64,000 nucleotides of DNA from an uncultured Candidatus Melainabacteria bacterium (GTDB lineage: Bacteria > Cyanobacteriota > Vampirovibrionia > Gastranaerophilales > Gastranaerophilaceae). The DNA lies in assembly GCA_945910425.1 (NCBI GenBank), contig CAMDYM010000001.1:1398-65397 (forward strand), in the 5' to 3' direction. The notes under the pieces are model-generated. The model did no database searches, was not told the origin of the DNA, and worked only from the letters and a program-made list of their open reading frames with translations. Position 1 is the stretch's first letter. Every line of letters starts with the position of its first letter. Of the stretch, positions 432 to 15,562 are shown one piece after another. A program made the translations under genes and the position numbers.

Positions 432-1289
432 TTATTTATTATTGTTATTTCTTCGTTCTTTTTGCTGCTTAGAACCTCTGTTTGAATAAGACAAATCCGA
501 ATACGGTAAGTCTTGTTCGTCAAAGGTTGCTTTTAAGTTTGAAATATTGTTTCTTAAATATTGTTCTACAGCTTTATCTCCCGGGATAAAGTTTGCAGAA
601 ACTACGCCTTCTTTATTTATACGCAAAATAACTGATATATTTTGGTCAAAATCAATTCTTAGCGGTTGATTATTTTCTCTAGCCTTACTGATTGCATCAA
701 GTAAAGTTTGAGAAATCTGAACATTTTGTTTAACTTCAGCAAATTCTGCGCCGTTATTAAGCATAGTTTGTGCTTGAGTAGTAATATTTGCAACAGATAC
801 GTCATTATTTTTCGTAAGGTTTAAAAAGAAATTTGCATCAGATTCACTCAAGAATAAAGATTTAGTAAAATCTAAAGTCATAAACCCTTTGCTATTAAAC
901 AAATTATCAGTTTCTTCTACAGCAGCAGTGCCTAATCCCATAACTTGACGAATATCATTTGTTAACATTGAATTAGCATCTAAAACAGCCATAGAAGCAA
1001 ATTTGGAATAATCAGCACTGCCTTCAAGAACTAAATCTGTTTCTGAACCTTGGTCATTTTGAGATTTATCGTTATTTGATTTTACAGACTCTTTTTTCTC
1101 AGAAGTTTCTGAAACATTTTTCTCTGAGGAAGCTTGTTCTTTTGTGGAAACTTTATTCATTTCATCTTTAAATGAAGATTCTGATGATGATTTTTTAGCA
1201 TTATCAGTATTAACCTGCGTTGAGGCTTGAGATGTAGCTGATGATGAACTTACCTGTGTTGAACTTGTTGTTGCTGCATTAATACTCAT
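432..1289 (-). CDS. fliK: Flagellar hook-length control protein FliK-like
   Basis: 285 aa. The Ser/Thr/Gln-rich N-terminal half is low complexity. The C-terminal block LRIDFDQNISVILRINKEGVVSANFIPGDKAVEQYLRNNISNLKATFDEQ resembles the FliK C-terminal (Flg_hook) domain. It lies between fliJ and a hook gene, with a GAAGG RBS. Confidence 0.55.
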   Translation of the reverse strand: MSINAATTSSTQVSSSSATSQASTQVNTDNAKKSSSESSFKDEMNKVSTKEQASSEKNVSETSEKKESVKSNNDKSQNDQGSETDLVLEGSADYSKFASMAVLDANSMLTNDIRQVMGLGTAAVEETDNLFNSKGFMTLDFTKSLFLSESDANFFLNLTKNNDVSVANITTQAQTMLNNGAEFAEVKQNVQISQTLLDAISKARENNQPLRIDFDQNISVILRINKEGVVSANFIPGDKAVEQYLRNNISNLKATFDEQDLPYSDLSYSNRGSKQQKERRNNNNK

Positions 1290-1290
1290 T

Positions 1291-1767
1291 TTAATTACCT
1301 TCTGACTGACTTAATTGCTTTTCTTCCTCGTCTCTGCGTTCTTGGGCTTGCTTGAAAAATCTTGTTACACCCAACTCTGAGAATTGTTTTAACTCTGCGG
1401 CTTTTTCTTCTGCGATATAGGCTTCTTTACTTTTTTCTTTATGCTTCTCAAGAACTTTTACATTCTGTTCGCATTTTACAAGCTTTTGAATTTCTATATC
1501 AAGTAAGCGTTGTAATTCTTGGCGTCTTGCTTCTAATTCTTCCGCTTTCTGCCACAGATGCCGCAAGAAATTATCGTATGATTCGTATAACATAGGATCT
1601 GCCTGCCGCATTCCGTTTTTGGTGTCCAGAATATCTTGTTCATTTTTCTTGATATCCTGCTCTGCCTGGTTGACCGCAGCTTGAGCTTTTTGAACCTTCA
1701 TTCTCTGCTCTTCTTTTTGATTTATTCTAAAATCTAAAGCCTTCTGCAATCTGTACCGAAATGGCAT
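1291..1767 (-). CDS. fliJ: Flagellar export chaperone FliJ
   Basis: 158 aa, all-helical and charged. The N-terminus MPFRYRLQKALDFRINQKEEQ is typical of FliJ, and the size and context fit. GAAGGTG RBS. Confidence 0.6.
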   Translation of the reverse strand: MPFRYRLQKALDFRINQKEEQRMKVQKAQAAVNQAEQDIKKNEQDILDTKNGMRQADPMLYESYDNFLRHLWQKAEELEARRQELQRLLDIEIQKLVKCEQNVKVLEKHKEKSKEAYIAEEKAAELKQFSELGVTRFFKQAQERRDEEEKQLSQSEGN

Positions 1768-2997: not shown

Positions 2998-3181
2998 TTT
3001 TAACTCCATTGTCTAATAATAGACACTACAATATTAACCTTATGTATATACTAGCAGATATTGTCCAATATGTAAAGGTTTGTAAATTTTGCTTAATAAA
3101 ATTTTACCTTAACAAAAATTTTTATTTTCACGATTTATATTTTAAGTAGAGTAGCATAATAATCAGAAAGGATATGTTCAA

Positions 3182-3514
3182 ATGATTCAACCCGTATCGG
3201 TAAATGTAAACACCAAAACCCCTCAGCAATATATGCAGCCTGTAATTCAGCCGCAACCATACCCTCAAATAATGTTTCATCCGCCTGTTATGGCAGGACT
3301 TGTAGCACCAAAGCCTACTATCCCGACACCGCCGCCAATAACACTTCCGCCGTTATCAGGAATAGTTTTACCTAAACCAATCCCGACCAATCCTCCAAAA
3401 CCTCCGGTTACGGCAGGTATAGTAGCTTCACCTGATTATTTTAAGCCTGATGAACAAAACAAAGAAGATAAACAGGTTCAAAAAACTGACAATAATATTA
3501 GTTTTAATGCTTAA
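3182..3514 (+). CDS. Proline-rich repeat peptide (110 aa), candidate rSAM substrate/precursor
   Basis: Three spaced cores: HPPVMAGLVAPKP, LPPLSGIVLPKP, KPPVTAGIVASPD. AAAGGA RBS. Same strand as, and 400 nt upstream of, the radical SAM/SPASM gene. No signal peptide and no Cys. Confidence 0.55.
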   Translation: MIQPVSVNVNTKTPQQYMQPVIQPQPYPQIMFHPPVMAGLVAPKPTIPTPPPITLPPLSGIVLPKPIPTNPPKPPVTAGIVASPDYFKPDEQNKEDKQVQKTDNNISFNA

Positions 3515-3623
3515 ATCTTAATAAATCTTTATATTAAATTATATAAATAGCAAATTTCTCATAAAAAATACCTTTTAATTAATAAGTAGGTAACAATTTG
3601 AAGTGTAGAAAGGAAATATTGAT

Positions 3624-3848
3624 ATGGGAATGAATCCGTTAGCAGGTAATGTACGTCCGAAAGCTCCAACAACTCAGCCAAAGCCACCTGTTATGGCTGG
3701 TAAGGTTGTATCAAAACCACCAAAAACAACACCTAAACCACCTGTTATGGCTGGTAAAGTTGTACCAAAACCACCGATAAAACCAAACGTAAATATTGTC
3801 AGAGCAATCAGAAATTTTATTGCAAACTTATGTAAAGGTATAAAATAA
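3624..3848 (+). CDS. Proline-rich repeat peptide (74 aa), second candidate rSAM substrate/precursor
   Basis: Cores are MNPLAGNVRPKAP, KPPVMAGKVVSKPP and KPPVMAGKVVPKPP. The last two are encoded by a 54-nt tandem repeat starting at 3684 and 3738. Amphipathic C-terminal tail NIVRAIRNFIANLCKGIK. AAAGGA RBS. Ends 72 nt upstream of the rSAM gene. Confidence 0.55.
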   Translation: MGMNPLAGNVRPKAPTTQPKPPVMAGKVVSKPPKTTPKPPVMAGKVVPKPPIKPNVNIVRAIRNFIANLCKGIK

Positions 3849-3919
3849 AACAAATAAATGATAAAAATAAACTTGCACCAATGTATAATATATCTTGTTA
3901 AACAATTTGAGGAAGTGAC

Positions 3920-4921
3920 ATGTACAAATTATACAGTGCAACAATAGAATTAACCAGACAATGCAATGCTAAATGTAAGCATTGCATTGTTGATGCAGGA
4001 AAGTCATTAGACGATGAATTATCAACAGAACGAATAATTCGACTTATTGAAGAGTTTGCGGATCAGGGCTGCCAAAACATAGTATTTACAGGCGGAGAAG
4101 CCTTATTAAGAAGAGAATTTCCTCTGTTTTTAGAAAAGGCAAAAGGATTAAATTTAGAAATTATCCTAATGACAAACGGGCTTTTATTGAATGATTATTC
4201 AATAAATATATTAAAACTTTTTGACCTGACACTTGGAATAAGCCTTGACGGACCCGACGCAAAAACTCACGATTCAATCAGAGGAGTAGACGGGCTTTTT
4301 GACCATCTTGTTAAAATTATCCCAAAACTAAAAAAAGCAGGTATTTACACCGCAATTTCAACAACTGTTATGCAGTCAAATTTTGATAAACTTGATAAAA
4401 TCAGAGATGTTCTGTTAAAACTGAATGTTGATTCATGGCAATTACAAGTACTAAAACCTTGTAAAAGACTTACTGATAACGAATTATTAACAGAAGAGCA
4501 GTATTATAAGCTTGCCGAAAAAATAGTTGATTATCGGAAAAATTTCGGCAAAAAAATGATGATATATGAAGCTGACTGTATTGGATACAATTCAAAACTT
4601 ACCGAAGGTTTATTTTTAAAAGAGTGGCGCGGATGCGAATGCGGAATATTCTCGGTAAGTATAGCAAGTGACGGTTCCGTGAAGGGATGCCCGAATATGA
4701 ACAATTCTGAAGGTAATATTAAAGACAAGCCTTTTGCCCAAATTTGGCAAGATCATAACTTATTTGCTTACAATCGCCGCCCTGATTTATCAAACCTTCC
4801 GACATACTGTAAAGAATGTCAATATAAATATGTTTGTCGCGGCGGCTGCCCGACAAATCAGCGGACATCTAAAAATAACACACTATGTCTGCATAAAATA
4901 GAAACTGTAGGAACTGATTAA
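3920..4921 (+). CDS. Radical SAM enzyme with C-terminal SPASM domain
   Basis: CNAKCKHC (CxxxCxxC, nt 3962-3985) near the N-terminus and a GGE motif (FTGGEALL). SPASM signature CECGIFSVSIASDGSVKGCP ... GNIKDKPFAQIW ... CKECQYKYVCRGGCP (nt 4808-4848). GAGGAAG RBS. No recognisable PqqD/RRE domain. Confidence 0.85.
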   Translation: MYKLYSATIELTRQCNAKCKHCIVDAGKSLDDELSTERIIRLIEEFADQGCQNIVFTGGEALLRREFPLFLEKAKGLNLEIILMTNGLLLNDYSINILKLFDLTLGISLDGPDAKTHDSIRGVDGLFDHLVKIIPKLKKAGIYTAISTTVMQSNFDKLDKIRDVLLKLNVDSWQLQVLKPCKRLTDNELLTEEQYYKLAEKIVDYRKNFGKKMMIYEADCIGYNSKLTEGLFLKEWRGCECGIFSVSIASDGSVKGCPNMNNSEGNIKDKPFAQIWQDHNLFAYNRRPDLSNLPTYCKECQYKYVCRGGCPTNQRTSKNNTLCLHKIETVGTD

Positions 4922-4933
4922 AATTTTTTGCAC

Positions 4934-4966
4934 AAAAGAGGCGGAGCTAACGGCTCAGCCTCTTTT
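4934..4966. terminator. Bidirectional rho-independent terminator between the rSAM gene and valS
   Basis: AAAAGAGGCGGAGC-TAACG-GCTCAGCCTCTTTT: a GC-rich stem flanked by an A-run and a T-run between convergent genes. Confidence 0.7.
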
Positions 4967-4981
4967 AATAATATCACTTTA

Positions 4982-7648
4982 TTAAGCTTTCAACGAATCA
5001 ATCAATTCATTTATCGCATTTTCTTGGACAAGAATTTCTTCAATTCTGTCTTTTGTTTGTTTAATTAACTCAGCAGGAGCATTCGCAGCAAACTTAGGAT
5101 TATTAACCCTGCCTTCTAATGATTTTCTTTCAGTTTGAAGTTTAGTTAGTTTCTTTTCCTGTCTTACAATTTCAGCGTTAAAATCAATAAGATTTTCAAG
5201 CGGAATTACAATTTTTGAAGCAGATACAACAGCCGTTGCTGATTTTTTTGCAACAGATGTTGAAACATCAGAGTAAGAAATATTCTCAACTTTTGCCATA
5301 CGTTTAATATAGCTTTCAATAGCTTCAAATACAGGTTTTTCATCTTCTGCAGCTTGAATTTCAATATTAAACTTCAAGCCCATCGGTATATTGAAACTTT
5401 GTCTTACATTACGCAAAGACTTAATTGTTTCAAATACAAGTTCCATTTCGCGAGCTTCTCTCGGGAACGCAAGTTTTTCTTCAAATACAGGATAATCCGC
5501 AACAATAATAGCTCTAGCTGCTGAGCTGCCTAACTGATGAGCTGCCTTTGGTATTAACTGCCATACGCGTTCTGTGATATGAGGCATTATCGGATGTAAT
5601 AATCTTAAAGACATATCAAGAACATATCTTAAAACTCTTTGTGTATTGAGTTTTAAAGTTTCATCCTGTAACTGAACTTTTGCAATTTCTACATACCAAT
5701 CACAATAGGCATTCCAGAAGAAATCGTATAATACGTGTGCGGTTTCACCAATTCTGTAGTTTTCGATATTAGTATTAACTTCTTTTGCAGTATTATTTAA
5801 TTTATCCAAAATCCACTTATCTGCAATAGTAAGTTTTGAATAATCAATATCATTATTGTCAATTCCTTCAAGGTTCATTAATACAAATCTTGAGGCGTTC
5901 CAAATTTTATTAGCAAAATTTCTGCCATATTCAAATCTTTCATCACTGATTTTAATATCCTGACCGCCATAAGTACAAAGGGATGTCATGGTAAATCTTA
6001 AAGCATCACATCCGTATTTGTCGATAATTACAACAGGGTCAATAGTGTTACCTTTAGATTTAGACATTTTTTGACCTTTTTCGTCACGAATAAGACCGTG
6101 AATATAAACGGTGGAGAATGGTGCTTTACCTGTAAACTCAAGTCCCATAGTAATCATTCTTGCAACCCAGAAGAAAATAATATCAAAACCTGTTACAAGA
6201 GTTGAGGTTGGGTAGAATTTTTTATAATCATCAGTTTCAGCGTTAGGAAATCCCATTGTACTAAACGGCCATAAGCCTGATGAGAACCAGGTATCAAGAC
6301 AATCTGTTTCTTGTACGTAATTTTCAGGATCAGGATTTTCTTTTGCTACAACCATTTCTCCTGTTACTTTATGATAATACGCAGGAATTTGATGTCCCCA
6401 CCAAATTTGACGGGAGATACACCAATCACGAATATTTTCCATCCAGCCCAAGTAATTTTTCTCCCAACGTTCAGGAATAAACTTAATTCTGCCGTCTTTT
6501 ACAGCTGCAATAGCTTCTTTTGCAAGCGGTCCCATTTTTACGAACCACTGTTCTGAAAGTAACGGCTCAATAGTTGTTCCGCAACGCTGACATTTACCAA
6601 CATTGTGTTCATGGTCTTTTACTCTTAACAATGAATGATTATCTTCAAGCATTTTTATAATCTGTTTACGAGCTTCATAACGATCAAGTCCGTGAAGGTT
6701 AGACGGCACTTCGCCGCATGCTTTCATACAGCCTTTTTCGTCAATTACCCAAATCGGATTAAATCCATGACGTTTTCCAACTTCAAAATCGTTAGGGTCA
6801 TGGGCAGGAGTAATTTTTACAGCGCCTGTACCAAAAGTTTTATCAACATATTCATCTGCGATAATCGGAATTTCTCTGCCTGTCAAAGGTATTACAACAG
6901 TTTTTCCAATAAGTTCGGAATACTTATGATCTGTCGGGTGAACAGCAATTGCAACATCACCAAAAATTGTTTCAGGACGAGTCGTTGCAACAATTATCGC
7001 ACCTGATTCACCTTTCAACGGGTATGAAATTTCCCATAAATGGCCTTGTTCCGTTTCATATTCGGTTTCAACATCAGATATTGCTGACTGACATCTTGGA
7101 CACCAGTTTACAATATAAGCGCCTTTATAAATTAAACCTTTATTATAAAGGGTAACAAAAACTTCTTTAACAGCATCAGAACAGCCCTTATCAAAAGTAA
7201 ATCTTTCTCTTGAACGGTCAAAAGAAGCCCCAAGGCGTTTCATCTGATCTAATATTGTACTTTTATGTTCATTTGTCCATTCCCAGGTTTTTTCCAAAAA
7301 TTTTTCTCTACCTAAATCATGACGGGTTAAACCTTCTTTTGCCAATTGTTTTTCAACAACATTTTGAGTAGCCAAACCGGCATGGTCTGTTCCCGGAACC
7401 CAAAGAGTTTCATAACCGCTCATTCTATGATATCTTACTAAAATATCCTGCAAAGTTTCATCCAAAGCATGCCCCATATGTAAAACACCTGTAACATTTG
7501 GGGGTGGAATTACTATAGAATAAGGCTTTTTAGGTGATTTTGCATCAGCCTTGAAAAATTCGTTTTCTTCCCAAAATTTGTAAATGCTTTCTTCTGTTTC
7601 TTTTGCATTATAAACCGTAGGTAAATCTTCAATCTTTGTTACTGACAT
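4982..7648 (-). CDS. valS: Valine--tRNA ligase
   Basis: Class I motifs PPPNVTGVLHMGH and KMSKSKGN, a C-terminal coiled coil, about 888 aa. Start taken at ATG 7648 (MSVTKIEDLP) with a GAGGA RBS. The 16-codon extension in the ORF track is unlikely. Confidence 0.95.
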   Translation of the reverse strand: MSVTKIEDLPTVYNAKETEESIYKFWEENEFFKADAKSPKKPYSIVIPPPNVTGVLHMGHALDETLQDILVRYHRMSGYETLWVPGTDHAGLATQNVVEKQLAKEGLTRHDLGREKFLEKTWEWTNEHKSTILDQMKRLGASFDRSRERFTFDKGCSDAVKEVFVTLYNKGLIYKGAYIVNWCPRCQSAISDVETEYETEQGHLWEISYPLKGESGAIIVATTRPETIFGDVAIAVHPTDHKYSELIGKTVVIPLTGREIPIIADEYVDKTFGTGAVKITPAHDPNDFEVGKRHGFNPIWVIDEKGCMKACGEVPSNLHGLDRYEARKQIIKMLEDNHSLLRVKDHEHNVGKCQRCGTTIEPLLSEQWFVKMGPLAKEAIAAVKDGRIKFIPERWEKNYLGWMENIRDWCISRQIWWGHQIPAYYHKVTGEMVVAKENPDPENYVQETDCLDTWFSSGLWPFSTMGFPNAETDDYKKFYPTSTLVTGFDIIFFWVARMITMGLEFTGKAPFSTVYIHGLIRDEKGQKMSKSKGNTIDPVVIIDKYGCDALRFTMTSLCTYGGQDIKISDERFEYGRNFANKIWNASRFVLMNLEGIDNNDIDYSKLTIADKWILDKLNNTAKEVNTNIENYRIGETAHVLYDFFWNAYCDWYVEIAKVQLQDETLKLNTQRVLRYVLDMSLRLLHPIMPHITERVWQLIPKAAHQLGSSAARAIIVADYPVFEEKLAFPREAREMELVFETIKSLRNVRQSFNIPMGLKFNIEIQAAEDEKPVFEAIESYIKRMAKVENISYSDVSTSVAKKSATAVVSASKIVIPLENLIDFNAEIVRQEKKLTKLQTERKSLEGRVNNPKFAANAPAELIKQTKDRIEEILVQENAINELIDSLKA

Positions 7649-7814
7649 TTTATTATCCTCATAATTTAAACTATTTATATAATAAAAGAATAACACAAAA
7701 TAAAATTATCGGAATAATGCTTAATGTAACAAAAAATATCGTTTATTGAAAAGGTTTCAATAGTGTGATATAATAATAGAATAGAGAAGATTGTATGTCT
7801 ATGGAGTTTTGAAT

Positions 7815-9539
7815 ATGAGGATTTCAAATAAAAAACAGGCTTATTCATTAGCAGAAATAATGACGGTAATGCTTGTTTTAACAGTAATATTTGCGGCATT
7901 TGCACCGTTTATGACAAAAAGAAGAGTTGCAACAAGAAATGTTGATACCCCTTGGGTATTAACAGACCAACAATCTTATGATGCTCAAACTGATCCCGGA
8001 AATAATACTAACCGTAACCAAATGTTTTTTGGTATTACACCTAAATCAGGCGATGAAGTTGAATCTCAGTATCAACCGTTTGCAAAACTTGTAATTCGTT
8101 CAGGAGAAGTTACCGGTGGACTTGTTCAAAGACAATTACAATTCCGTTACGGACTTAATAATTCTAGTTCAAAATATACTGATAAAGGAAAATATGCCGG
8201 AACATGGTTAATGGATGGTAAAAATGTCCTTATGGGCGGCGGGTATAGAAATATAGTAACTAAAAATTCAGGTAGCACACAAGCAAGTAAGAACAATACT
8301 GCCATTGGTTACAACGCTTTAAATAAAATAACTTATGGCTCAGGTAATACTGCCTTGGGATATAATGCATTAGCTAATGTAACTTACGCTAAAGATAATG
8401 TTGCTATTGGAGCAAATACAGCGTCAAACTTATATACTTCACAAAATACATATATTGGAGCAAATGCAGGAAAATCACAAACCGGGTCTAAAAATGTTGC
8501 GGTAGGTTACAATGCGGCAGGAGCTAGTAGCGGTACAGGATCTAATAATACCTATGTCGGGGCTTTTTCTGGACAATCTTCTACACGCGCAAATCGTAAT
8601 GTAGCAGTTGGTGCTCATGCCCTTAAATCTATAACAACAGGGTATGACAATGTGGCTTTAGGTTATGGCGCATTACAAAAATTAACAACAGGCTATTATA
8701 ATGTCGCTATTGGCTATAATGCTTGTTCTAAAGTTACATCAGGCTCTTATAAAACTTGTATCGGTGCTAATTCAGGACCAAAATCCGGCACCAACGGGGT
8801 TGGTAACTTTATAAAAGGTTGGGAAGATAATGTTCAAAGAACATATATCGGCTCTAAACCTCATAACTTTGGCGGTGATGCTGTTCTGGAAATTCATAAC
8901 CCTGAGCCACCAAAAGACTTGAACAAGAATGGTATTGTTCAATATTTAGCCGGAACAGCATCAAATACAACAACCATTATCAATGGAAATTTAATTGTTA
9001 CTGGTAAAACTTATTTTACTTCCGGTCAAAATTTGTATCACCTTCATGAATTAAGTGGCACTAATTCAAAATATGTCTTTGGAGCTTCAGGCACTAATGA
9101 TGTCTGCTCTTATGATCCTAAAAGTTATGCATTTACAGGAAGTAACTGTAAAGTCTTTTCATCAGACAGAAGGCTCAAAAATATAGGAACAAAAAATGGG
9201 GCAGGGCTTGATAAATTATCACAATTAAAAATTTATAACTATACTTTTAAAAACGATAAAAACAAATTACCGCATGTCGGGGTAATGGCTCAAGATTTGC
9301 AAAAAGTATTTCCAAATTCTGTATTTAAAGGTGAAGATGGCTATCTTCGTATCCGTTGGGATGAGATGTTCTTTGCCACAATAAACGCGGTCAAAGAATT
9401 AGACAAAAAACTCATTGCACTTGTAAATAAAACATTCAAGGTTGAATCTCAAATCGCAAAACTTGAAAAAGAAAATGTTATTTTAAAATCTCAAGTAGAT
9501 TTATTAACAACAAGAATAAATAAATTAAAAGCTCAATAA
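7815..9539 (+). CDS. Prepilin-leader / tail-fibre-repeat protein with C-terminal S74 intramolecular chaperone domain (paralog A)
   Basis: MRISNKKQA|YSLAEIMTVMLVLTVIFAAFAPF is a class III signal-like N-terminus (E at +5). About 15 iterations of NTA(I/L)GYNAL..T.G repeats. Conserved neck AVLEIHN...NGNLIVTGKTYF. SSDRRLKNI...YNYTFKND..LPHVGVMAQDLQKVFPNSV...IRWDEMF matches the endosialidase/tail-spike chaperone domain (Ser-x4-Lys dyad, Ser codon 9162-9164), followed by a coiled coil. GGAG RBS 8 nt before ATG 7815. Confidence 0.75.
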   Translation: MRISNKKQAYSLAEIMTVMLVLTVIFAAFAPFMTKRRVATRNVDTPWVLTDQQSYDAQTDPGNNTNRNQMFFGITPKSGDEVESQYQPFAKLVIRSGEVTGGLVQRQLQFRYGLNNSSSKYTDKGKYAGTWLMDGKNVLMGGGYRNIVTKNSGSTQASKNNTAIGYNALNKITYGSGNTALGYNALANVTYAKDNVAIGANTASNLYTSQNTYIGANAGKSQTGSKNVAVGYNAAGASSGTGSNNTYVGAFSGQSSTRANRNVAVGAHALKSITTGYDNVALGYGALQKLTTGYYNVAIGYNACSKVTSGSYKTCIGANSGPKSGTNGVGNFIKGWEDNVQRTYIGSKPHNFGGDAVLEIHNPEPPKDLNKNGIVQYLAGTASNTTTIINGNLIVTGKTYFTSGQNLYHLHELSGTNSKYVFGASGTNDVCSYDPKSYAFTGSNCKVFSSDRRLKNIGTKNGAGLDKLSQLKIYNYTFKNDKNKLPHVGVMAQDLQKVFPNSVFKGEDGYLRIRWDEMFFATINAVKELDKKLIALVNKTFKVESQIAKLEKENVILKSQVDLLTTRINKLKAQ

Positions 9540-9726: not shown

Positions 9727-10998
9727 ATGACACCAAAGAAATTTTTATTTACTTCTGAATCAGTTACGGAAGGACACCCCGACAAAGTTTGCGACCAAAT
9801 TTCAGACGCAATTTTAGATGAATTTCTAACAAAAGACAGACAATCAAGAGTTGCTGCTGAAACCACAGTAACAACAGGTATGGCTTTAGTTTGCGGAGAA
9901 ATAACCGCTGATTGTTATGTAGATATTCCGCAGGTTGTTAGAAATACAATCAAAAATATCGGTTACATTGGTTCTAATGCAGGTGGTTTTGATGCTGATA
10001 CTTGCGCTGTATTAACAAGTATTGATGAACAATCAACAGATATCGGAAACGGGGTTAACAAAGCTTTTGAAACAAGAAGTGAAAACGCAGATACTTCAAG
10101 TGTTGAAACAGAAGAAATTGGAGCAGGCGATCAAGGTATAATGTTTGGTTATGCTTGCAACGAAACACCTGAACTTATGCCGTTACCAATAAGCCTTGCT
10201 CATAAATTGTCATACAGATTAGCTCAAGTAAGAAAACAAGGACTTGTTAATTATTTAAGACCTGACGGTAAATCTCAAGTAACTGTCGAATATGTTGACG
10301 GTAAACCTTCAAGAATCCACACTGTACTGCTTTCAACTCAACATAACCCGTCTATTAATGGTGAAACTGATAATCAAAAAGTTCAAGACATTATTAAAAA
10401 TGATTTAAAAAAACTTGTTATTGATTATGTTTTTGAAAATGAAGAAATCGGATTAGACGAAAATACAATCATTTTAATCAATCCTTCAGGAAGATTTGTA
10501 ATTGGCGGGCCTCAGGGTGATTCAGGATTAACAGGCAGAAAAATTATCGTAGATACCTACGGTGGATATTCAAGACACGGCGGTGGAGCATTCTCTGGAA
10601 AAGATCCGACAAAAGTTGACAGATCAGCAGCTTACGCTTCACGTTATGTAGCTAAAAACATCGTAGCATCAGGTTTAGCTGAAAAATGCGAAATAGAATT
10701 AGCTTATGCTATTGGTGTAGCTGAACCTTTATCAATTATGGTTGATACCTTTGGAACAGGTAAAATTTCAGATGATGAAATTTCAAAACTTGTTTACAAA
10801 AACTTCGACTTAAGACCTGCTGCAATTATTAACAAATTTGATTTAAGAAACTTACCTGCTAAAAACGGTGGTAAATTCTATCAATTATTAGCAGCTTACG
10901 GTCATATGGGACGTACTGATATAAATGTTCCTTGGGAACAAACAGACAAGGCTGAAACATTAAAAACTCAAGCTATGTCAATATCATCTTGCATATAA
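9727..10998 (+). CDS. metK: S-adenosylmethionine synthetase
   Basis: [55 protein letters not shown]. Strong AAGGAGAAAG RBS. Confidence 0.95.
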
Positions 10999-11086: not shown

Positions 11087-13375
11087 TTACTTATTTTTTG
11101 TTTCAAGAATATTTAATTCTGTTTCTAATTTATCTAACTTTGCATTAAGTTCTTGGTTATCCTTTTTCAAGGCTGCAACACGAGATTTATCCGTTGAAAT
11201 CTTTGAAGCTAGTTTTTCTATTCGAACATTCAACTCTTTAACAGAATTAATAACAGCATAGAACATTTCATCCCAGCGAATTTGGTAATAACCGTTTTCA
11301 TCTTTAGATACAGCGTTAGGGAAAACCATCTTCAAATCTTGAGCCATTACACCTACTTGAGGTAACTTCCTTACATCATTTTTGAATGTAAAATTATAGA
11401 TGTTTAAGCGTTTTAATTCTGCTAATCCTGCCGTGAACTTATCACCTATATTTTTCAAACGAGCATCTGAAGTTAGATACCCTCTGGTATCTTTTTCATC
11501 TGCTGCATTTATTGTCAAATTTGGGCAACAAGAGGATTTTATTTCACCAAAACGACCGTCTGTAGCACCACCAATACCTTTTAAATGAGCAAGAGGTTGG
11601 TCAGTTCCCAAAGACCTATAATCTCCACGCTCAAAGATTCCATATTTTACATTATTACCATAAGCTCTATTTGGATTTTTCCATTCGGAATTTCGTTCCA
11701 AATAAACGGTACCTCCTACAGCTTGATCATTATAATATTGCCCCATCCTATGACGATTACCGCAAATAGTACCATTACCATCACCATCATCGCCATAAGT
11801 AATATCACCTTCTGTTTTTGTAATCCAGTCATAAGAAGTACTACCTTTACGAAGGGATTCTCCAACATTTGCATAATTTGTATTTCCTGTATATGAACCA
11901 ACCGTTGTACAAATACAATTAGTTCTTAAGTCTTTAAAATCATGCAACTGACAACGTCTTCTATTACATCTTGCAAAAGATTTTTCATTACGACGAGCCC
12001 CATCATATCCCATAAAAGAATAAGTACTGCTATTAACTTTTTGTACCTGATAAGCAACAAGTCCTTTTGGTAAATATTCAGGATGCATTTGATATTTACC
12101 GTTATCACTTGTTGCCGGTCTCCAAATAGGAGTTTCTAAATAAGATTGACCTCTTACAACTAAATTACCATTTATGACAACAGATTCATAGCCCAAACCT
12201 GAAATTGGCACCATTTTCTTAGAAGTATCAGAGGCAGATACATTATGGACTTCTAAAACAGCACCAGGCCCCTTACCTGTTGAAGCTCCGGTAGACCTAG
12301 GAATAGAGCCAATAAATACTCTTTCATGAGTACCATTATACAAACCTTCTAATGGTTTTATATTATTTTTAACAGTATCTGAATTTTGTATAGTTCCAGA
12401 AAAAGCTCCAACAAAGGTTTTATTAGAACCTGTTGTTAATAAATCGCCTGTATGAGAACCAATCGCAGTATTATAAGACCCCTTCGTTATATTTCTTAAA
12501 GATTTAGAACCTATTGCAGTATTATAATTACCTTCTGTATTATTTATTAATGCGGAATAACCGACAGCAGTATTTCCATAACCGCTTGTTAACTGATATT
12601 TATACGAATTATCTCCCTCATTATAAGACATTAATGAACCTAAAATAGTATTAGAATACCCGGTAGAGTCAACATGACCTGCATCAGTCATCCCTATTAT
12701 CGTATTATCATTGCCTTTATTTCCAGTTACATAGGCACCGGCAGCACGACCTGCAAAAGTGTTTCTGGAGCCTGTAGTATACCGACCGGCTCTGGAACCA
12801 ATCGCGGTATTATTACTACCTGTTGTTAATTCATTAAAAGTTAAATTACCGGCAGCAGTATTGTTAGAACCAGTTGTTAATGCTGATAAAGAACCTGAAC
12901 CGTAAGCAGTATTATTTACAGCTGAAGATTGAACATTTTTATATTCTCCACCAAGTAAAAAATTTCCGCGACCAGCCAATAACGAACCTAGATAAGTTCC
13001 TTCAGCAGGAGTATTACCGTAGCGAAACTGCATCTGAGTCTGAATACCTGATATTCCTTTCAGCTTTTCAGCCGAACGAATAACAAGCTTAGAGTAAAGA
13101 GGATTGCCGGAAGCATCTTGAATTGCCGCACTTACATCAAGAGCCTTTTTTACAGGAATACCAATAAAAGCTTGTGCTGTAAATGACTTATTAGACGCAT
13201 CATAATAAGCATCATTATGACTATCAGAAGGAACATAAGTCCAAACATCATCATATGAAACATTATGCTGTCTTTTGGTCATAACAGGAGCAAATGCGGC
13301 CATTAATACTGAAAGTGTTAACAGTAATATCATTACTTCTGCCATTGTAAATGCTTTATTTTTAATATATTTCAT
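11087..13375 (-). CDS. Prepilin-leader / tail-fibre-repeat protein with C-terminal S74 chaperone domain (paralog B, 762 aa)
   Basis: MKYIKNKA|FTMAEVMILLLTLSVLMAAFAPV. Repeats of the NNTA.G..A....TTGSNNTA type. Neck AVLEVHN...INGNLVVRGQSYL. About 220-aa Cys/Gly/Asp-rich distal region. TSDARLKNIGDKF...YNFTFKND..LPQVGVMAQDLKMVFPNAV...IRWDEMF plus a coiled coil (Ser codon 11468-11470). GGAG RBS. Starts 14 nt after paralog C. Confidence 0.75.
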   Translation of the reverse strand: MKYIKNKAFTMAEVMILLLTLSVLMAAFAPVMTKRQHNVSYDDVWTYVPSDSHNDAYYDASNKSFTAQAFIGIPVKKALDVSAAIQDASGNPLYSKLVIRSAEKLKGISGIQTQMQFRYGNTPAEGTYLGSLLAGRGNFLLGGEYKNVQSSAVNNTAYGSGSLSALTTGSNNTAAGNLTFNELTTGSNNTAIGSRAGRYTTGSRNTFAGRAAGAYVTGNKGNDNTIIGMTDAGHVDSTGYSNTILGSLMSYNEGDNSYKYQLTSGYGNTAVGYSALINNTEGNYNTAIGSKSLRNITKGSYNTAIGSHTGDLLTTGSNKTFVGAFSGTIQNSDTVKNNIKPLEGLYNGTHERVFIGSIPRSTGASTGKGPGAVLEVHNVSASDTSKKMVPISGLGYESVVINGNLVVRGQSYLETPIWRPATSDNGKYQMHPEYLPKGLVAYQVQKVNSSTYSFMGYDGARRNEKSFARCNRRRCQLHDFKDLRTNCICTTVGSYTGNTNYANVGESLRKGSTSYDWITKTEGDITYGDDGDGNGTICGNRHRMGQYYNDQAVGGTVYLERNSEWKNPNRAYGNNVKYGIFERGDYRSLGTDQPLAHLKGIGGATDGRFGEIKSSCCPNLTINAADEKDTRGYLTSDARLKNIGDKFTAGLAELKRLNIYNFTFKNDVRKLPQVGVMAQDLKMVFPNAVSKDENGYYQIRWDEMFYAVINSVKELNVRIEKLASKISTDKSRVAALKKDNQELNAKLDKLETELNILETKNK

Positions 13376-13389
13376 TTGCGTACTCCATA

Positions 13390-15387
13390 TTAGTTTTCAA
13401 GTTTATTAACTCTTTTATTCAGAGAATCTATTCTTCGTTGAACTGACCTTTGTTCTTTTTCAACTATTTTCGAATCTTTTTCTAATGAATCGACATCTTT
13501 ATTAAAATCAATTAATTTTTGATTTAACTTTTTAACTGAATTAATTGTTACGTAGAACAGTTCATCCCGTCTTATTTGTAAGTAACCTTCATCATCTGTA
13601 GACACAGAATTTGGCAGATATTTTTGCAAATCTTGTGCTATAACTCCGACTTGAGGAGTATTATCTTTATCAGATTTATATGTAAAATTATAAGGCATAA
13701 CCAGCATAATTTTTTCCAAAGCATCAGTATTTTCTGTTATATTTTCTTTTAATCGTATATCAGAAAGCTGCAAATCAGGGCAATTTCCCCCTGATTTAGG
13801 ATAATTATCCGTAACAGAATCCACACATGCAGGAGCAAATTTAGGATTTGTATCATCTCCGCCCATAGTAAAGTTCATCGCTGAAAATGATAATGGATCC
13901 GGAGCCCTATCATAGCCTTTACCACCAAACATTGATCCTACAAATCCCCCAACAGTACCACCCCAAAGGGCAGCATAAGCTATTGCAATAGCAGTTGTTG
14001 CTCCAAGAGTGATAAAACCACCAACAATTGCAGCAGCACCAATAATAACACCGACTATAATATTCCAAATACTACAACTTGATGAGTGCCAATGCCTTCT
14101 ATGAAATGGCTTTGTACAGCATTCATCTCTACCCTTTTCAGAGCCGCTTTTCTTATCTGTAATGATAGAAACCGTATGAGTACTCAATTTTCCACCATGG
14201 GTAATTGCTGCCGGGAAAAATACGTTACCTCTAACAACCAAATTAGAATTCATAACAACGGTAGGTCCTAAATTGGACGAAAAATTATGGACTTCAAGTA
14301 CTGATCGACCGCCGAAACCCTTTGGAGAACCACCCAAATATATATGATCACCATTATCAATATCAAAACCTGCAGTTCCTCCTGAACTAGGAGCTCCAGA
14401 CCTGACACCTTTATTTTTAGCAGATTCATAACCAATACAAGTATTAGTTGTCCCTTTACCATCATATGAAACCGACATACAGGAATCATAACCAACCGCA
14501 GTTAAATTAGACTGAGTTGTTGTTTTTCCTGTATAAACATCATAACCTATAATAGTATTATTTTGAGAATTTTCAGCATAATAATATGAACCAAGTATAA
14601 CATTGTCATTAGAAGCTGTGGTTAAACCTACAGAAGAAACGTTGGCACCTGCAAATACATTATTATTACCTCTTGATGTTGCACTATTTAAGACATTAGC
14701 TCCAAGGGCTACAGTATTATTTATAGCACCCATTGCTTCTGTTCTTCCGGTATTAGCACCTAAAAATGTATTATTAGAGCCTGATAAATATTCTCCTGAT
14801 TGAACACCAGCTGCAACGTTAGAATAGGCTACATGTGTCTTAGATTTATCTTTGGCTAAATCTGAAGCCATAGCTCGAGCACCAATTGCAACATTTAGTT
14901 TAGGAACAGTATAACTGTTAAAAGCACTCATCCCAGCGGCTGTATTTTCTTCACCCACCCCGGAATATGAAACCTTACCTACAGTTTTTAAATTGCCCTT
15001 ATCATCAAAGGTAAAAGAACCGACATAACGACCGTCGCCATCACCATATCTGAAATGAATCATATCCTGAGGGTATTCATTACCGCTATCATTGATTTTA
15101 ACAGCCTTTAAAACTACTTTTGAATAATGTTTTTCCTTATATACTTTTTCTATGCCTGCTTTTGTTAATCCTACAAACGCAGCAGAAGTCAAAGTCGGAA
15201 CTTCTGAATCATAATATGCGTCATGGGTATTACCGTCAGTAAATCGCCATACAGACTCAAGGTTTACCTCAGAACCGTTAAACCTCTTTGTTATTATCGG
15301 TGCTAACGCGGCAAATAAAACCGCCACAATTACTAAAACAATAAGTAATTCTGTCAACGAAAAAGCTTTAAATTTATTAAAATTCAT
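13390..15387 (-). CDS. Prepilin-leader / tail-fibre-repeat protein with internal glycine-zipper hydrophobic segment and C-terminal S74 chaperone domain (paralog C)
   Basis: MNFNKFKA|FSLTELLIVLVIVAVLFAALAPI. Repeat region and neck SVLEVHN...NSNLVVRGNVFF. Hydrophobic Gly-rich stretch WNIIVGVIIGAAAIVGGFITLGATTAIAIAYAALWGGTVGGFVGSMFGG. LSDIRLKENI...YNFTYKSD..TPQVGVIAQDLQKYLPNSV...IRRDELF plus a coiled coil (Ser codon 13762-13764). The start is ambiguous: ATG 15387 is preferred by GGAG spacing, with alternatives at 15393 (ATG) and 15396 (TTG). Confidence 0.7.
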   Translation of the reverse strand: MNFNKFKAFSLTELLIVLVIVAVLFAALAPIITKRFNGSEVNLESVWRFTDGNTHDAYYDSEVPTLTSAAFVGLTKAGIEKVYKEKHYSKVVLKAVKINDSGNEYPQDMIHFRYGDGDGRYVGSFTFDDKGNLKTVGKVSYSGVGEENTAAGMSAFNSYTVPKLNVAIGARAMASDLAKDKSKTHVAYSNVAAGVQSGEYLSGSNNTFLGANTGRTEAMGAINNTVALGANVLNSATSRGNNNVFAGANVSSVGLTTASNDNVILGSYYYAENSQNNTIIGYDVYTGKTTTQSNLTAVGYDSCMSVSYDGKGTTNTCIGYESAKNKGVRSGAPSSGGTAGFDIDNGDHIYLGGSPKGFGGRSVLEVHNFSSNLGPTVVMNSNLVVRGNVFFPAAITHGGKLSTHTVSIITDKKSGSEKGRDECCTKPFHRRHWHSSSCSIWNIIVGVIIGAAAIVGGFITLGATTAIAIAYAALWGGTVGGFVGSMFGGKGYDRAPDPLSFSAMNFTMGGDDTNPKFAPACVDSVTDNYPKSGGNCPDLQLSDIRLKENITENTDALEKIMLVMPYNFTYKSDKDNTPQVGVIAQDLQKYLPNSVSTDDEGYLQIRRDELFYVTINSVKKLNQKLIDFNKDVDSLEKDSKIVEKEQRSVQRRIDSLNKRVNKLEN

Positions 15388-15562
15388 CCTCATCAAACTC
15401 CAAGTACTCTATGTTAATAATATAATTTTAACATAATTTAGCCAATATTTCAATAATATTCACAAAATATACAAATTTAAATTTAAAATCAGACAATAAG
15501 TGTAATTTGAGCATACATAAAAATTTACATACTTAAGAAATTTGATATGATAAAATTTAATC

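Follow-up and report, generated by a model that had tools for sequence, protein, structure and literature searches.

Radical S-adenosylmethionine (SAM) enzymes with a SPASM domain are a main source of new peptide chemistry, and most of the maturases characterised need a cysteine or an aromatic residue in the core. By contrast, the genes at 3182-4921 of the stretch analysed here (64,000 nucleotides of contig CAMDYM010000001.1, from an uncultured Gastranaerophilaceae bacterium; hereafter the window) show a conserved pairing of such an enzyme with small repeat peptides, in which the core consists only of proline, glycine, small and aliphatic residues and a leader is often missing. Among the closest described systems, TvgB (TVGG repeats) and TigE (TIGSVS repeats) form cyclopropylglycines on valine or isoleucine in short glycine-containing repeats (PMC9062424, PMC10878394). 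These cyclopropyl synthases are about 470 aa long, with an N-terminal recognition element (RRE) for peptides synthesized on ribosomes and modified post-translationally (RiPPs) and a strictly conserved GYW whose tyrosine ligates the auxiliary cluster Aux I (PMC10878394). EpeE epimerises valine and isoleucine, and a non-ligand cysteine near its active site is catalytically important (PMC13012085). Spliceases are binary, leader-independent systems that recognise short internal motifs of peptides and proteins, and some of their precursors are multi-site (PMC11414181).

The locus resembles each of these in part. Like TvgA/TvgB and TigB/TigE, it joins a SPASM enzyme to a precursor of short repeats, on which we propose that the enzyme acts iteratively; the repeats set, as their one notable conserved side chain, a beta-branched valine or isoleucine next to glycine or small residues in cores free of cysteine and aromatics, and a net -2 Da oxidation would fit two auxiliary clusters. 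Unlike TvgB and TigE, the enzyme is 333 aa long, lacks an RRE, reads G-Y-N/Y/F and has four cysteines for Aux I, and the repeats stand 18-25 aa apart in a proline-rich scaffold, not back-to-back. EpeX(YydF)/EpeE(YydG) likewise has a small, RRE-less radical SAM enzyme with valine and isoleucine targets, and C241 of the present enzyme is an extra cysteine that might correspond to C223 of EpeE; EpeE, however, has one auxiliary cluster and a single-core precursor of 49 aa, as against what appear to be two clusters, and 2-5 cores, here. The epeE operon includes a linked protease and ABC transporter, neither of which is linked to this locus. With the spliceotides (PlpX/RhaX, XYG motifs) the likeness lies in a sister clade with MYGVP/LYGVP and RYAGP repeats, but splicing requires Tyr-Gly and the window cores have no tyrosine. 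The enzyme anSME is also an RRE-less SPASM protein of similar size with two fully Cys-ligated clusters (a ligation that is predicted here); it recognises a short proline-containing internal motif in a protein substrate and performs a two-electron oxidation, whereas the substrate here would be a dedicated adjoining repeat peptide. AhbD and NirJ give the highest hidden Markov model (HMM) scores, with full-length alignment, about 330 aa and no RRE, but the present family is strictly linked to repeat peptides.

Repeat peptides beside a radical SAM/SPASM enzyme

We put at roughly 0.72 the probability that 3182-4921 is a self-contained operon for two substrate peptides and a dedicated radical SAM/SPASM maturase that would oxidise each core. 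Judged from its sequence, the operon looks like an undescribed system of the type in which radical SAM enzymes modify ribosomal peptides or proteins. Its genes and signals are these.

3166..3172, + strand: Shine-Dalgarno GAAAGGA of gene 1, read from sequence, 9 nt 5' of the ATG at 3182
3182-3514, + strand: putative precursor gene 1, an open reading frame (ORF) of 110 aa, Pro-rich (23% Pro), with three cores
3608..3614, + strand: Shine-Dalgarno GAAAGGA of gene 2, read from sequence
3624-3848, + strand: putative precursor gene 2, an ORF of 74 aa, Lys/Pro-rich, with three cores, the first at residue 5 (no leader)
3909..3915, + strand: Shine-Dalgarno GAGGAAG of the enzyme gene, read from sequence
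3920-4921, + strand: gene 3, putative radical SAM/SPASM maturase, an ORF of 333 aa without an RRE domain
4934-4966, no strand assigned: hairpin terminator (A-run, hairpin, T-run), from sequence, its inner stem detected by scan

The three genes, their individual ribosome-binding sites (Shine-Dalgarno-to-ATG distance 4-9 nt), the terminator and the repeated cores all lie where the original prediction had placed them. The gaps are short, as it had said, but measure 109 nt (gene 1 to gene 2) and 71 nt (gene 2 to gene 3) rather than 110 and 72. The unit appears self-contained because a divergent gene resembling that of ribosomal protein S1 is its 5' neighbour, its genes have their own Shine-Dalgarnos, and the enzyme gene shares its terminator with the convergent valS (4982-7696, - strand). 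No riboswitch or other RNA was found by an Rfam scan of the locus, and the locus holds no RRE, protease or exporter, just as had been predicted.

A protein search finds a tight enzyme family of about 75 clusters at 55-100% identity, beyond which identity drops to 46% or less. Scanning species-representative genomes gives 27 loci whose enzyme is 55-88% identical (clade A), and four further Gastranaerophilales loci at 35-38%. Directly upstream of the enzyme gene, on the same strand and 3-70 nt away, every one of the 27 loci has a Pro-rich ORF, encoding a protein of 70-160 aa with 11-28% proline and 2-5 cores (such as QPLAGLIAPP, PPLGGLIAPP, PPIMAGKV or PLSGNVIP). When flanking genes are clustered this ORF is the only constant companion of the enzyme, and the pair is found in no fewer than 10 genomic contexts, S1/valS, lepA-DedA and rplM-rpsI among them. 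The core is also specific to these proteins. Of 12,078 stop-to-stop frames no shorter than 40 aa, taken in six frames from 1.21 Mb (the window plus 161 loci), 29 contain two or more occurrences of the pattern P.{0,1}[LIVMT][AGS]G.[IVL], and these are the 27 upstream ORFs and the two window genes.

Most of the 27 loci are labelled Gastranaerophilales, Melainabacteria, Vampirovibrio or "Cyanobacteria bacterium" and belong to metagenome-assembled genomes from the gut (human, mouse, rabbit, ruminant); several are labelled "uncultured bacterium" and a few Muribaculaceae or Clostridium. The Muribaculaceae and Clostridium labels (L001, contig JAMPCZ010000034.1, with L006, L017 and L037) are attached to loci with a Gastranaerophilales-specific cassette and synteny, and are probably errors of binning or taxonomy. 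A scan of JGI metagenomes was dominated by the generic GGEPFLR pattern, its best match being 35% identical, and is used as a negative control only.

Codon comparison indicates that the peptide ORFs are under purifying selection: the ratio of non-synonymous to synonymous substitution rates (dN/dS) is 0.03-0.33 in 13 of 14 peptide pairs from related loci (0.33 for gene 2 against the homologous single peptide of L001), the exception being a poorly alignable pair. All three window proteins are annotated as genes in public assemblies, where an identical copy of the gene 1 protein is called (P0133) and the gene 2 protein (P0148) is called on 13 contigs. In the six strain variants of gene 1 every substitution lies outside residues 34-86, and in those of gene 2 the changes are confined to conservative or variable core positions (e.g. 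V->I, K->T at +3), so that the cores are kept. A peptide profile search returned 22 matches among 5.8 billion proteins, all of 100-174 aa and unnamed or "hypothetical", with Gastranaerophilaceae as the sole named source; genes 1 and 2 have no match in Pfam or NCBIfam.

The original prediction had read these genes as a RiPP-like cassette with an unfamiliar core motif, and that reading gains support from the linkage and from the core itself. Three outcomes set beforehand as counting against it (homologues without adjoining repeat peptides, an enzyme falling inside a characterised non-RiPP clade, small ORFs not conserved) are not what we find.

The enzyme, its cores and their co-variation

The enzyme matches the Pfam models Radical_SAM (PF04055) at 8.5e-24 and SPASM (PF13186) at 5.6e-6, the latter with 27 bits against a cut-off of 21.5, and it carries both the CxxxCxxC motif and the full set of SPASM cysteines that had been claimed for it. 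The SPASM pattern sought, CX9-15GX4C ... CX2CX5CX3C ... C, is present as C241..G252-x4-C257, C297-x2-C300-x5-C306-x3-C310, C323. The two regions concerned are the following.

3962..3985, + strand: radical SAM [4Fe-4S] motif C15-x3-C19-x2-C22, universal in all clades
4577..4888, + strand: bridging region and SPASM domain, from conservation across clades A, A' and B

Every related clade has the same eight C-terminal cysteines (C220, C239, C257, C310, C297, C300, C306 and C323), and E217-x-D219-C220-I-G222-Y223 is invariant in the enzyme family. Eight cysteines are enough for a pair of auxiliary clusters ligated wholly by cysteine, such as anSME has, and we predict the same for this enzyme; comparison with the structures of anSME and other SPASM proteins makes C220, C239, C257 and C310 the probable ligands of Aux I, and C297, C300, C306 and C323 those of Aux II. 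An extra cysteine, C241, is invariant in the clades with putative aliphatic-core substrates and is alanine in the sister (RYAGP) clade. No RRE/PqqD-like domain can fit at the N-terminus, because the protein starts only 14 residues ahead of CxxxCxxC, and the AlphaFold2 model shows no extra domain.

In that model (predicted local distance difference test score 92.9), the enzyme folds as the SPASM enzymes that modify peptides and proteins do. Foldseek matches to SkfB, SuiB, anSME, ChlB, PqqE and CteB span template modelling scores of 0.67-0.77, with SuiB at 0.77, ChlB at 0.74, anSME at 0.71-0.74 and SkfB at 0.72; TigE stands at 0.62 (rank 44). A family profile run against the PDB gives SkfB at 6e-31 over the radical SAM half only, SuiB, CteB, PqqE and anSME at 1e-13 to 1e-16, and EpeE at 2.7e-10 with only residues 5-190 aligned. 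By sequence and by fold, then, the PDB offers generic SPASM relatives only and no close solved relative. Nor does the enzyme reach any curated family cut-off in NCBIfam, which places it outside the characterised non-RiPP clades. Its scores run as follows.

NirJ2: 167 bits, cut-off 500
AhbD: 158 bits, cut-off 500
GDL-motif maturase: 137.5 bits, cut-off 592
nif11 maturase 3: 128 bits, cut-off 725
MftC: 110 bits, cut-off 265
anSME (TIGR03942): 76.6 bits, cut-off 349

Several known types can be set aside on these grounds. Membership in the cyclopropyl(glycine) synthase group (RadicalSAM.org cluster 1-1-201:AS65) is rejected: G222-Y223 is followed by N, Y or F and never by W, with C220, three residues upstream of Y223, the likely fourth Aux I ligand; there is no RRE; and there is no homology to TigE (8VPO), which is absent from profile matches at E<=0.001 and from SPASM-half matches at E<=10. 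A TigE-like proxy was sought among the fetched loci and none was found. With RRE and GYW both absent, the enzyme is not a member of that group, though it may work in a similar way. A splicease is rejected for the window clade, which has no core tyrosine and scores 128 bits against 725 for TIGR04103 (spliceases, PlpX family). So is anSME (76.6 against 349 bits, no sulfatase nearby, no C/S-x-P-x-R motif), and so is a haem enzyme of the AhbD/NirJ type (158 and 167 bits against 500, no haem genes in about 30 loci). Sactipeptides and ranthipeptides are rejected because the cores lack cysteine, and cross-linkers of the three-residue cyclophane, streptide or darobactin type because no conserved core position is aromatic. 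Of the features of the broad radical SAM/SPASM RiPP-type class, the CxxxCxxC core, the SPASM cysteine pattern and a linked, co-varying putative precursor are present, while an RRE/PqqD-like domain and a leader, common in the class without being universal, are not.

Across the family the core reads P-[LMIVT]-[AGS]-G-x-[IV]-x-P-P. The motif first put forward, PP(V/L)x(A/S)GxV, was correctly seen as unfamiliar and turns out to be a local variant of it. A core logo was made from 81 instances in 21 peptides, using a pattern that fixed positions 0, +1, +2 and +4 and required one proline within three upstream residues; positions +6 and +7 were unconstrained, and counts at constrained positions show only which allowed residue dominates.

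Position -1: P 66/81
Position 0: L 48, M 12, I 8, T 8, V 5
Position +1: A 52, G 16, S 13
Position +2: G 81/81, by construction (required by the pattern)
Position +3: variable (L, K, N)
Position +4: I 53, V 27, L 1, only I, V or L being permitted by the pattern
Position +6: P 63/81
Position +7: P 57/81

Isoleucine or valine stands at +4 in 80/81 cores (of the three residues, I, V and L, that the pattern allowed), and a conserved Val/Ile within repeats is a trait that the peptides share with the precursors of the cyclopropyl(glycine) synthases. The interval from one core to the next is 18-25 residues, with a median of 21. The conserved core is without cysteine and tryptophan, as predicted. Indeed the peptides have no tryptophan anywhere and no cysteine or aromatic at any conserved core position, and such cysteines as they have (0-2 per peptide) all lie within signal-like or tail segments. 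The cores also have no conserved hydroxyl acceptor, and those of the window have no cysteine, tryptophan or tyrosine, the last of these likewise predicted.

In the window subclade (gene 2 and loci L002-L004 and L006) the first core comes at residues 3-7, with no leader. A C-terminal hydrophobic, transmembrane-like segment is found in L002, L003, L005 and L006, tails that are transmembrane-like or have an amphipathic pattern occur across L001-L010, L022 and L025, and the N-terminus is lipoprotein-like in L008 and in P0141. Since many relatives bear Sec-like or lipoprotein-like signals or transmembrane-like C-terminal segments, the products are probably modified proteins, secreted or associated with the envelope, rather than small antibiotics cleaved from a leader.

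Within the window, gene 1 carries three cores (HPPVMAGLVAPKP, LPPLSGIVLPKP and KPPVTAGIVASP), and gene 2 also three, NPLAGNVRP and two copies of KPPVMAGKVV(S/P)KPP.

3281..3316, + strand: gene 1 core 1, PPVMAGLVAPKP, residues 34-45, reference copy of DNA repeat D1
3347..3379, + strand: gene 1 core 2, PPLSGIVLPKP, residues 56-66
3401..3433, + strand: gene 1 core 3, PPVTAGIVASP, residues 74-84, a copy of DNA repeat D1
3636..3659, + strand: gene 2 core 1, PLAGNVRP, residues 5-12
3684..3722, + strand: gene 2 core 2, PPVMAGKVVSKPP, residues 21-33, a DNA repeat copy
3738..3776, + strand: gene 2 core 3, PPVMAGKVVPKPP, residues 39-51, derived from core 2 by a recent tandem duplication of 54 nt
3786..3845, + strand: gene 2 C-terminal tail, NVNIVRAIRNFIANLCKGIK, amphipathic residue pattern, read from sequence

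Four copies of the DNA repeat are present (3281, 3401, 3684 and 3738). Those at 3684 and 3738, 54 nt apart, are nearly identical, which bears out the tandem duplication to which the two KPPVMAGKVV(S/P)KPP units had been ascribed; Tandem Repeats Finder at its thresholds did not list it. The tail of gene 2 may be an element for recognition or membrane association.

Core type follows enzyme phylogeny, as would be predicted by direct recognition between enzyme and substrate.

Window subclade: enzyme at least 64% identical, core xxG(K/N/L)V, no leader
Main subclade: enzyme 55-67% identical, core (L/I)(A/G)GLI, 2-5 cores
L074: enzyme 44% identical, cores VSGSAV, LSGSAV and ISGSII, in a divergent 80-aa ORF
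Sister clade: enzyme 36-38% identical, core xRYAGP (L028, L029, L031) or (M/L)YGVP (L030), in proteins of about 140 aa

With the sister clade there may be another enzyme-substrate family that is still undescribed. Outside the Gastranaerophilales, homologues at 33-37% identity lack repeat peptides and give no guide to function; they occur in archaeal and Thermoanaerobaculia settings, in a tetrahydromethanopterin-like cluster and in a Band_7/ATP-grasp operon.

Proposed mechanism and rival explanations

The enzyme most likely binds each repeated core directly and independently of a leader, because it has no RRE and several of the presumed substrates have no leader. It would act iteratively on one residue per core, hence at three sites in each window peptide and at 2-5 in those of relatives. 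SAM would be cleaved reductively to a 5'-deoxyadenosyl radical that abstracts one hydrogen atom from a core residue, and the two Cys-ligated auxiliary clusters would accept the electron, for a net two-electron oxidation of -2 Da per core. Such an electron-transfer role with net two-electron oxidation is favoured because the eight conserved cysteines indicate two fully ligated clusters. The most likely target is the beta-branched isoleucine or valine two residues past the core glycine, which the flanking prolines and the small-Gly pair probably expose in a turn that is extended and accessible. The only oxidative outcome with a precedent on an aliphatic core is gamma-gamma C-C closure of valine or isoleucine to (methyl)cyclopropylglycine, with C-alpha epimerisation as the main alternative. 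By analogy with the described systems, the candidate chemistries are cyclopropanation or another two-electron oxidation at Ile/Val, or epimerisation, and the earlier guesses of epimerisation or C-C/C-H functionalisation at Val/Ile remain the leading candidates.

A number of points weigh against this proposal. The data show the enzyme class, the gene linkage, the conservation of the core and its co-variation; the functional parts of the proposal (the peptides as substrates, the residue modified, the chemistry, the localisation) we infer wholly from gene linkage. Among the examined loci no conserved protease, exporter, immunity or partner gene is consistently linked; the sole other linked gene, for a transmembrane protein with HExxH, is found downstream in a single synteny group (10 loci) only. 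What the clade A, L074, RYAGP and YGVP cores have in common is hydrophobic/aromatic-(small)-Gly, not Ile/Val, so the target could instead be position 0, +1 or the glycine. There is no GYW with a tyrosine ligand to Aux I, the family having G222-Y223-N/Y/F and four cysteines for Aux I. EpeE is similar over the N-terminal radical SAM half alone (E 2.7e-10), and the best HMM scores are those of the haem enzymes NirJ2 and AhbD, though far under their cut-offs.

Redox-neutral C-alpha epimerisation by the same pair, leaving one D-residue per core (Ile/Val at +4, position 0, or Ala/Ser at +1), is unlikely yet deserves serious weight. EpeE/YydG is likewise small and RRE-less and epimerises Val/Ile, with a loop cysteine as hydrogen-atom donor (PMC13012085). 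The aliphatic-core clades have their extra invariant C241 beside an Aux I ligand, alanine in the RYAGP clade, although to cast C241 as the donor is pure conjecture. Position +1 is A, G or S, which would fit a site that needs a D-like backbone conformation. However, EpeE has one auxiliary cluster, as against the eight cysteines for two here that recall the oxidative SPASM enzymes, and its similarity to the family, as noted, extends over residues 5-190 only. Epimerisation would give a protease-resistant Pro-rich protein for gut life.

It is rather doubtful that the pair performs a chemistry new to radical SAM enzymes on aliphatic/Gly cores. It could, for example, abstract the C-alpha hydrogen of the core glycine, then oxidise this site and cleave the backbone, so that Pro-flanked units would be freed with no need of a protease; or it could cross-link positions 0 and +4, either sp3-sp3 or through the backbone. 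Glycine is the only residue common to all core variants across the enzyme clades, but its conservation may reflect steric access alone. No protease is linked, the cores have no aromatic residue, cysteine or conserved hydroxyl acceptor, and the even spacing of 18-25 aa is like that of multi-core precursors; on the other side, a literature search found no enzymatic precedent. That the system constitutes a previously unrecognised class restricted to Gastranaerophilales, an RRE-less SPASM enzyme with a chemistry not yet known and an all-aliphatic/Gly core, can be advanced only tentatively. In that event the RYAGP, YGVP and VSGSAV sister clades would amount to a small radiation of new, related chemistries, with envelope or secreted proteins as their targets.

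A further reading makes the enzyme one of cofactor or small-molecule metabolism, AhbD/NirJ-like, and its Pro-rich neighbour no substrate but an unrelated envelope protein, anchor or partner; we judge this very improbable. The best NCBIfam scores do go to NirJ2 (167 bits) and AhbD (158 bits), which are similar in length and both without an RRE, but they are about 1/3 of the curated cut-offs, and no haem or cofactor genes lie nearby in any of about 30 loci. A 37%-identical homologue does sit in a tetrahydromethanopterin-like cluster with pterin-binding, Mpt_N and GHMP-kinase genes, but distant homologues in cofactor-like contexts have no repeat peptides. The lack of a linked protease or exporter would suit this reading; a pair that stays intact through at least 10 rearranged contexts, with a core type that tracks the enzyme clade, is hard to explain without direct recognition. 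Finally, the idea that AT-rich intergenic DNA produced the small ORFs as chance or non-coding frames, as their low-complexity composition and want of a database family might suggest, has a negligible probability and is ruled out by dN/dS (0.03-0.33 in 13/14 pairs), their own ribosome-binding sites, conservation in 27/27 loci, a core unique among 12,078 frames, and public gene calls.

Our searches found no Pfam or NCBIfam model, solved structure or paper covering this enzyme/peptide family. Four of its traits are unusual: an all-aliphatic, Pro-flanked core; the lack of RRE and leader; an even, multi-core Pro-rich scaffold with envelope-targeting features; and restriction to Gastranaerophilales, which are non-photosynthetic relatives of cyanobacteria. 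If the oxidative proposal or either chemical alternative holds, enzymology would be extended in any case, by a cyclopropylglycine made without the GYW/Tyr ligand presumed to be diagnostic, by a two-cluster epimerase, or by something new. The system is small (two genes), and a compact, leader-independent pair of tag and enzyme for protein engineering would follow. It is among the very few lineage-wide, lineage-specific traits so far in uncultured gut Gastranaerophilales, and one that probably concerns cell envelope or secreted proteins.

Related loci and neighbouring genes

Repeat number and integrity evolve fast. The peptide at L004:5508-5780 has four near-identical 24-aa units, the last core of L014:5542-5937 has decayed (PPLNENVI, against PPLSGNIL in L013), and in L019:5656-5997 PAWAGVI replaces PPLAGVI. 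In L074 the ORF at 3608-3850 (-), with its enzyme at L074:4001-5008, is Thr/Lys-rich rather than Pro-rich and carries the cores PKVSGSAV, PRLSGSAV and LNISGSII, an intermediate type reminiscent of the TigB TIGSVS. The sister-clade peptides (Gastranaerophilales; L028:3803-4222 and 4309-4728 (+), L029:3224-3592 (-), L031:5545-5988 (+) and L030:338-862 (+)) are about 120-175 aa long, with 3-5 repeats and mostly Sec-type signal-like N-termini; the (M/L)-Y-G-V-P repeat of L030 contains the Tyr-Gly of splicease XYG sites. A more distant homologue (P0104, 37% identical) lies at L078:1-7080 within a cluster resembling those for tetrahydromethanopterin or C1-transfer cofactors. Its neighbours there have DUF6513/pterin-binding, DUF447, GHMP kinase, Mpt_N and ATP-grasp domains, and a 70-aa ORF overlaps the start of the enzyme gene; the setting suggests that this branch has a role related to cofactors.

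In the lepA-DedA synteny group, a transmembrane protein of about 309 aa with HELKH is encoded 3' of the enzyme gene (L012:7082-8005; also L011, L013, L014, L016, L018-L021 and L027). It has a weak match to DUF6782, a putative metallopeptidase (E 0.008), and is absent from the window. Its N-terminus (M..VG..N...NF) resembles that of the adjoining repeat peptides, and the protein may be a lineage-specific processing protease or the bearer of a shared targeting signal.

In the window itself, metK (S-adenosylmethionine synthetase) lies at 9727-10998 (+), 4.8 kb 3' of the radical SAM gene, a proximity that is probably coincidental because the neighbourhood is not conserved at other loci. Beyond the S1 gene, at 432-1767 (-), are flagellar genes, with a weak match to the hook-length-control protein FliK and a 158-aa coiled-coil protein that has no Pfam match and is read from its sequence as FliJ-like; both are consistent with a flagellated Gastranaerophilales genome. 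Three large paralogues, at 7791-9539 (+), 11087-13375 (-) and 13390-15396 (-), each have a hydrophobic, pilin-like N-terminus and, at the C-terminus, a Peptidase_S74 domain, which serves phage tail-spike and endosialidase proteins as an intramolecular chaperone. The third of them (13390-15396) also matches the Pfam N_methyl motif, and the joining of a pilin-like segment to S74 is an unusual architecture.

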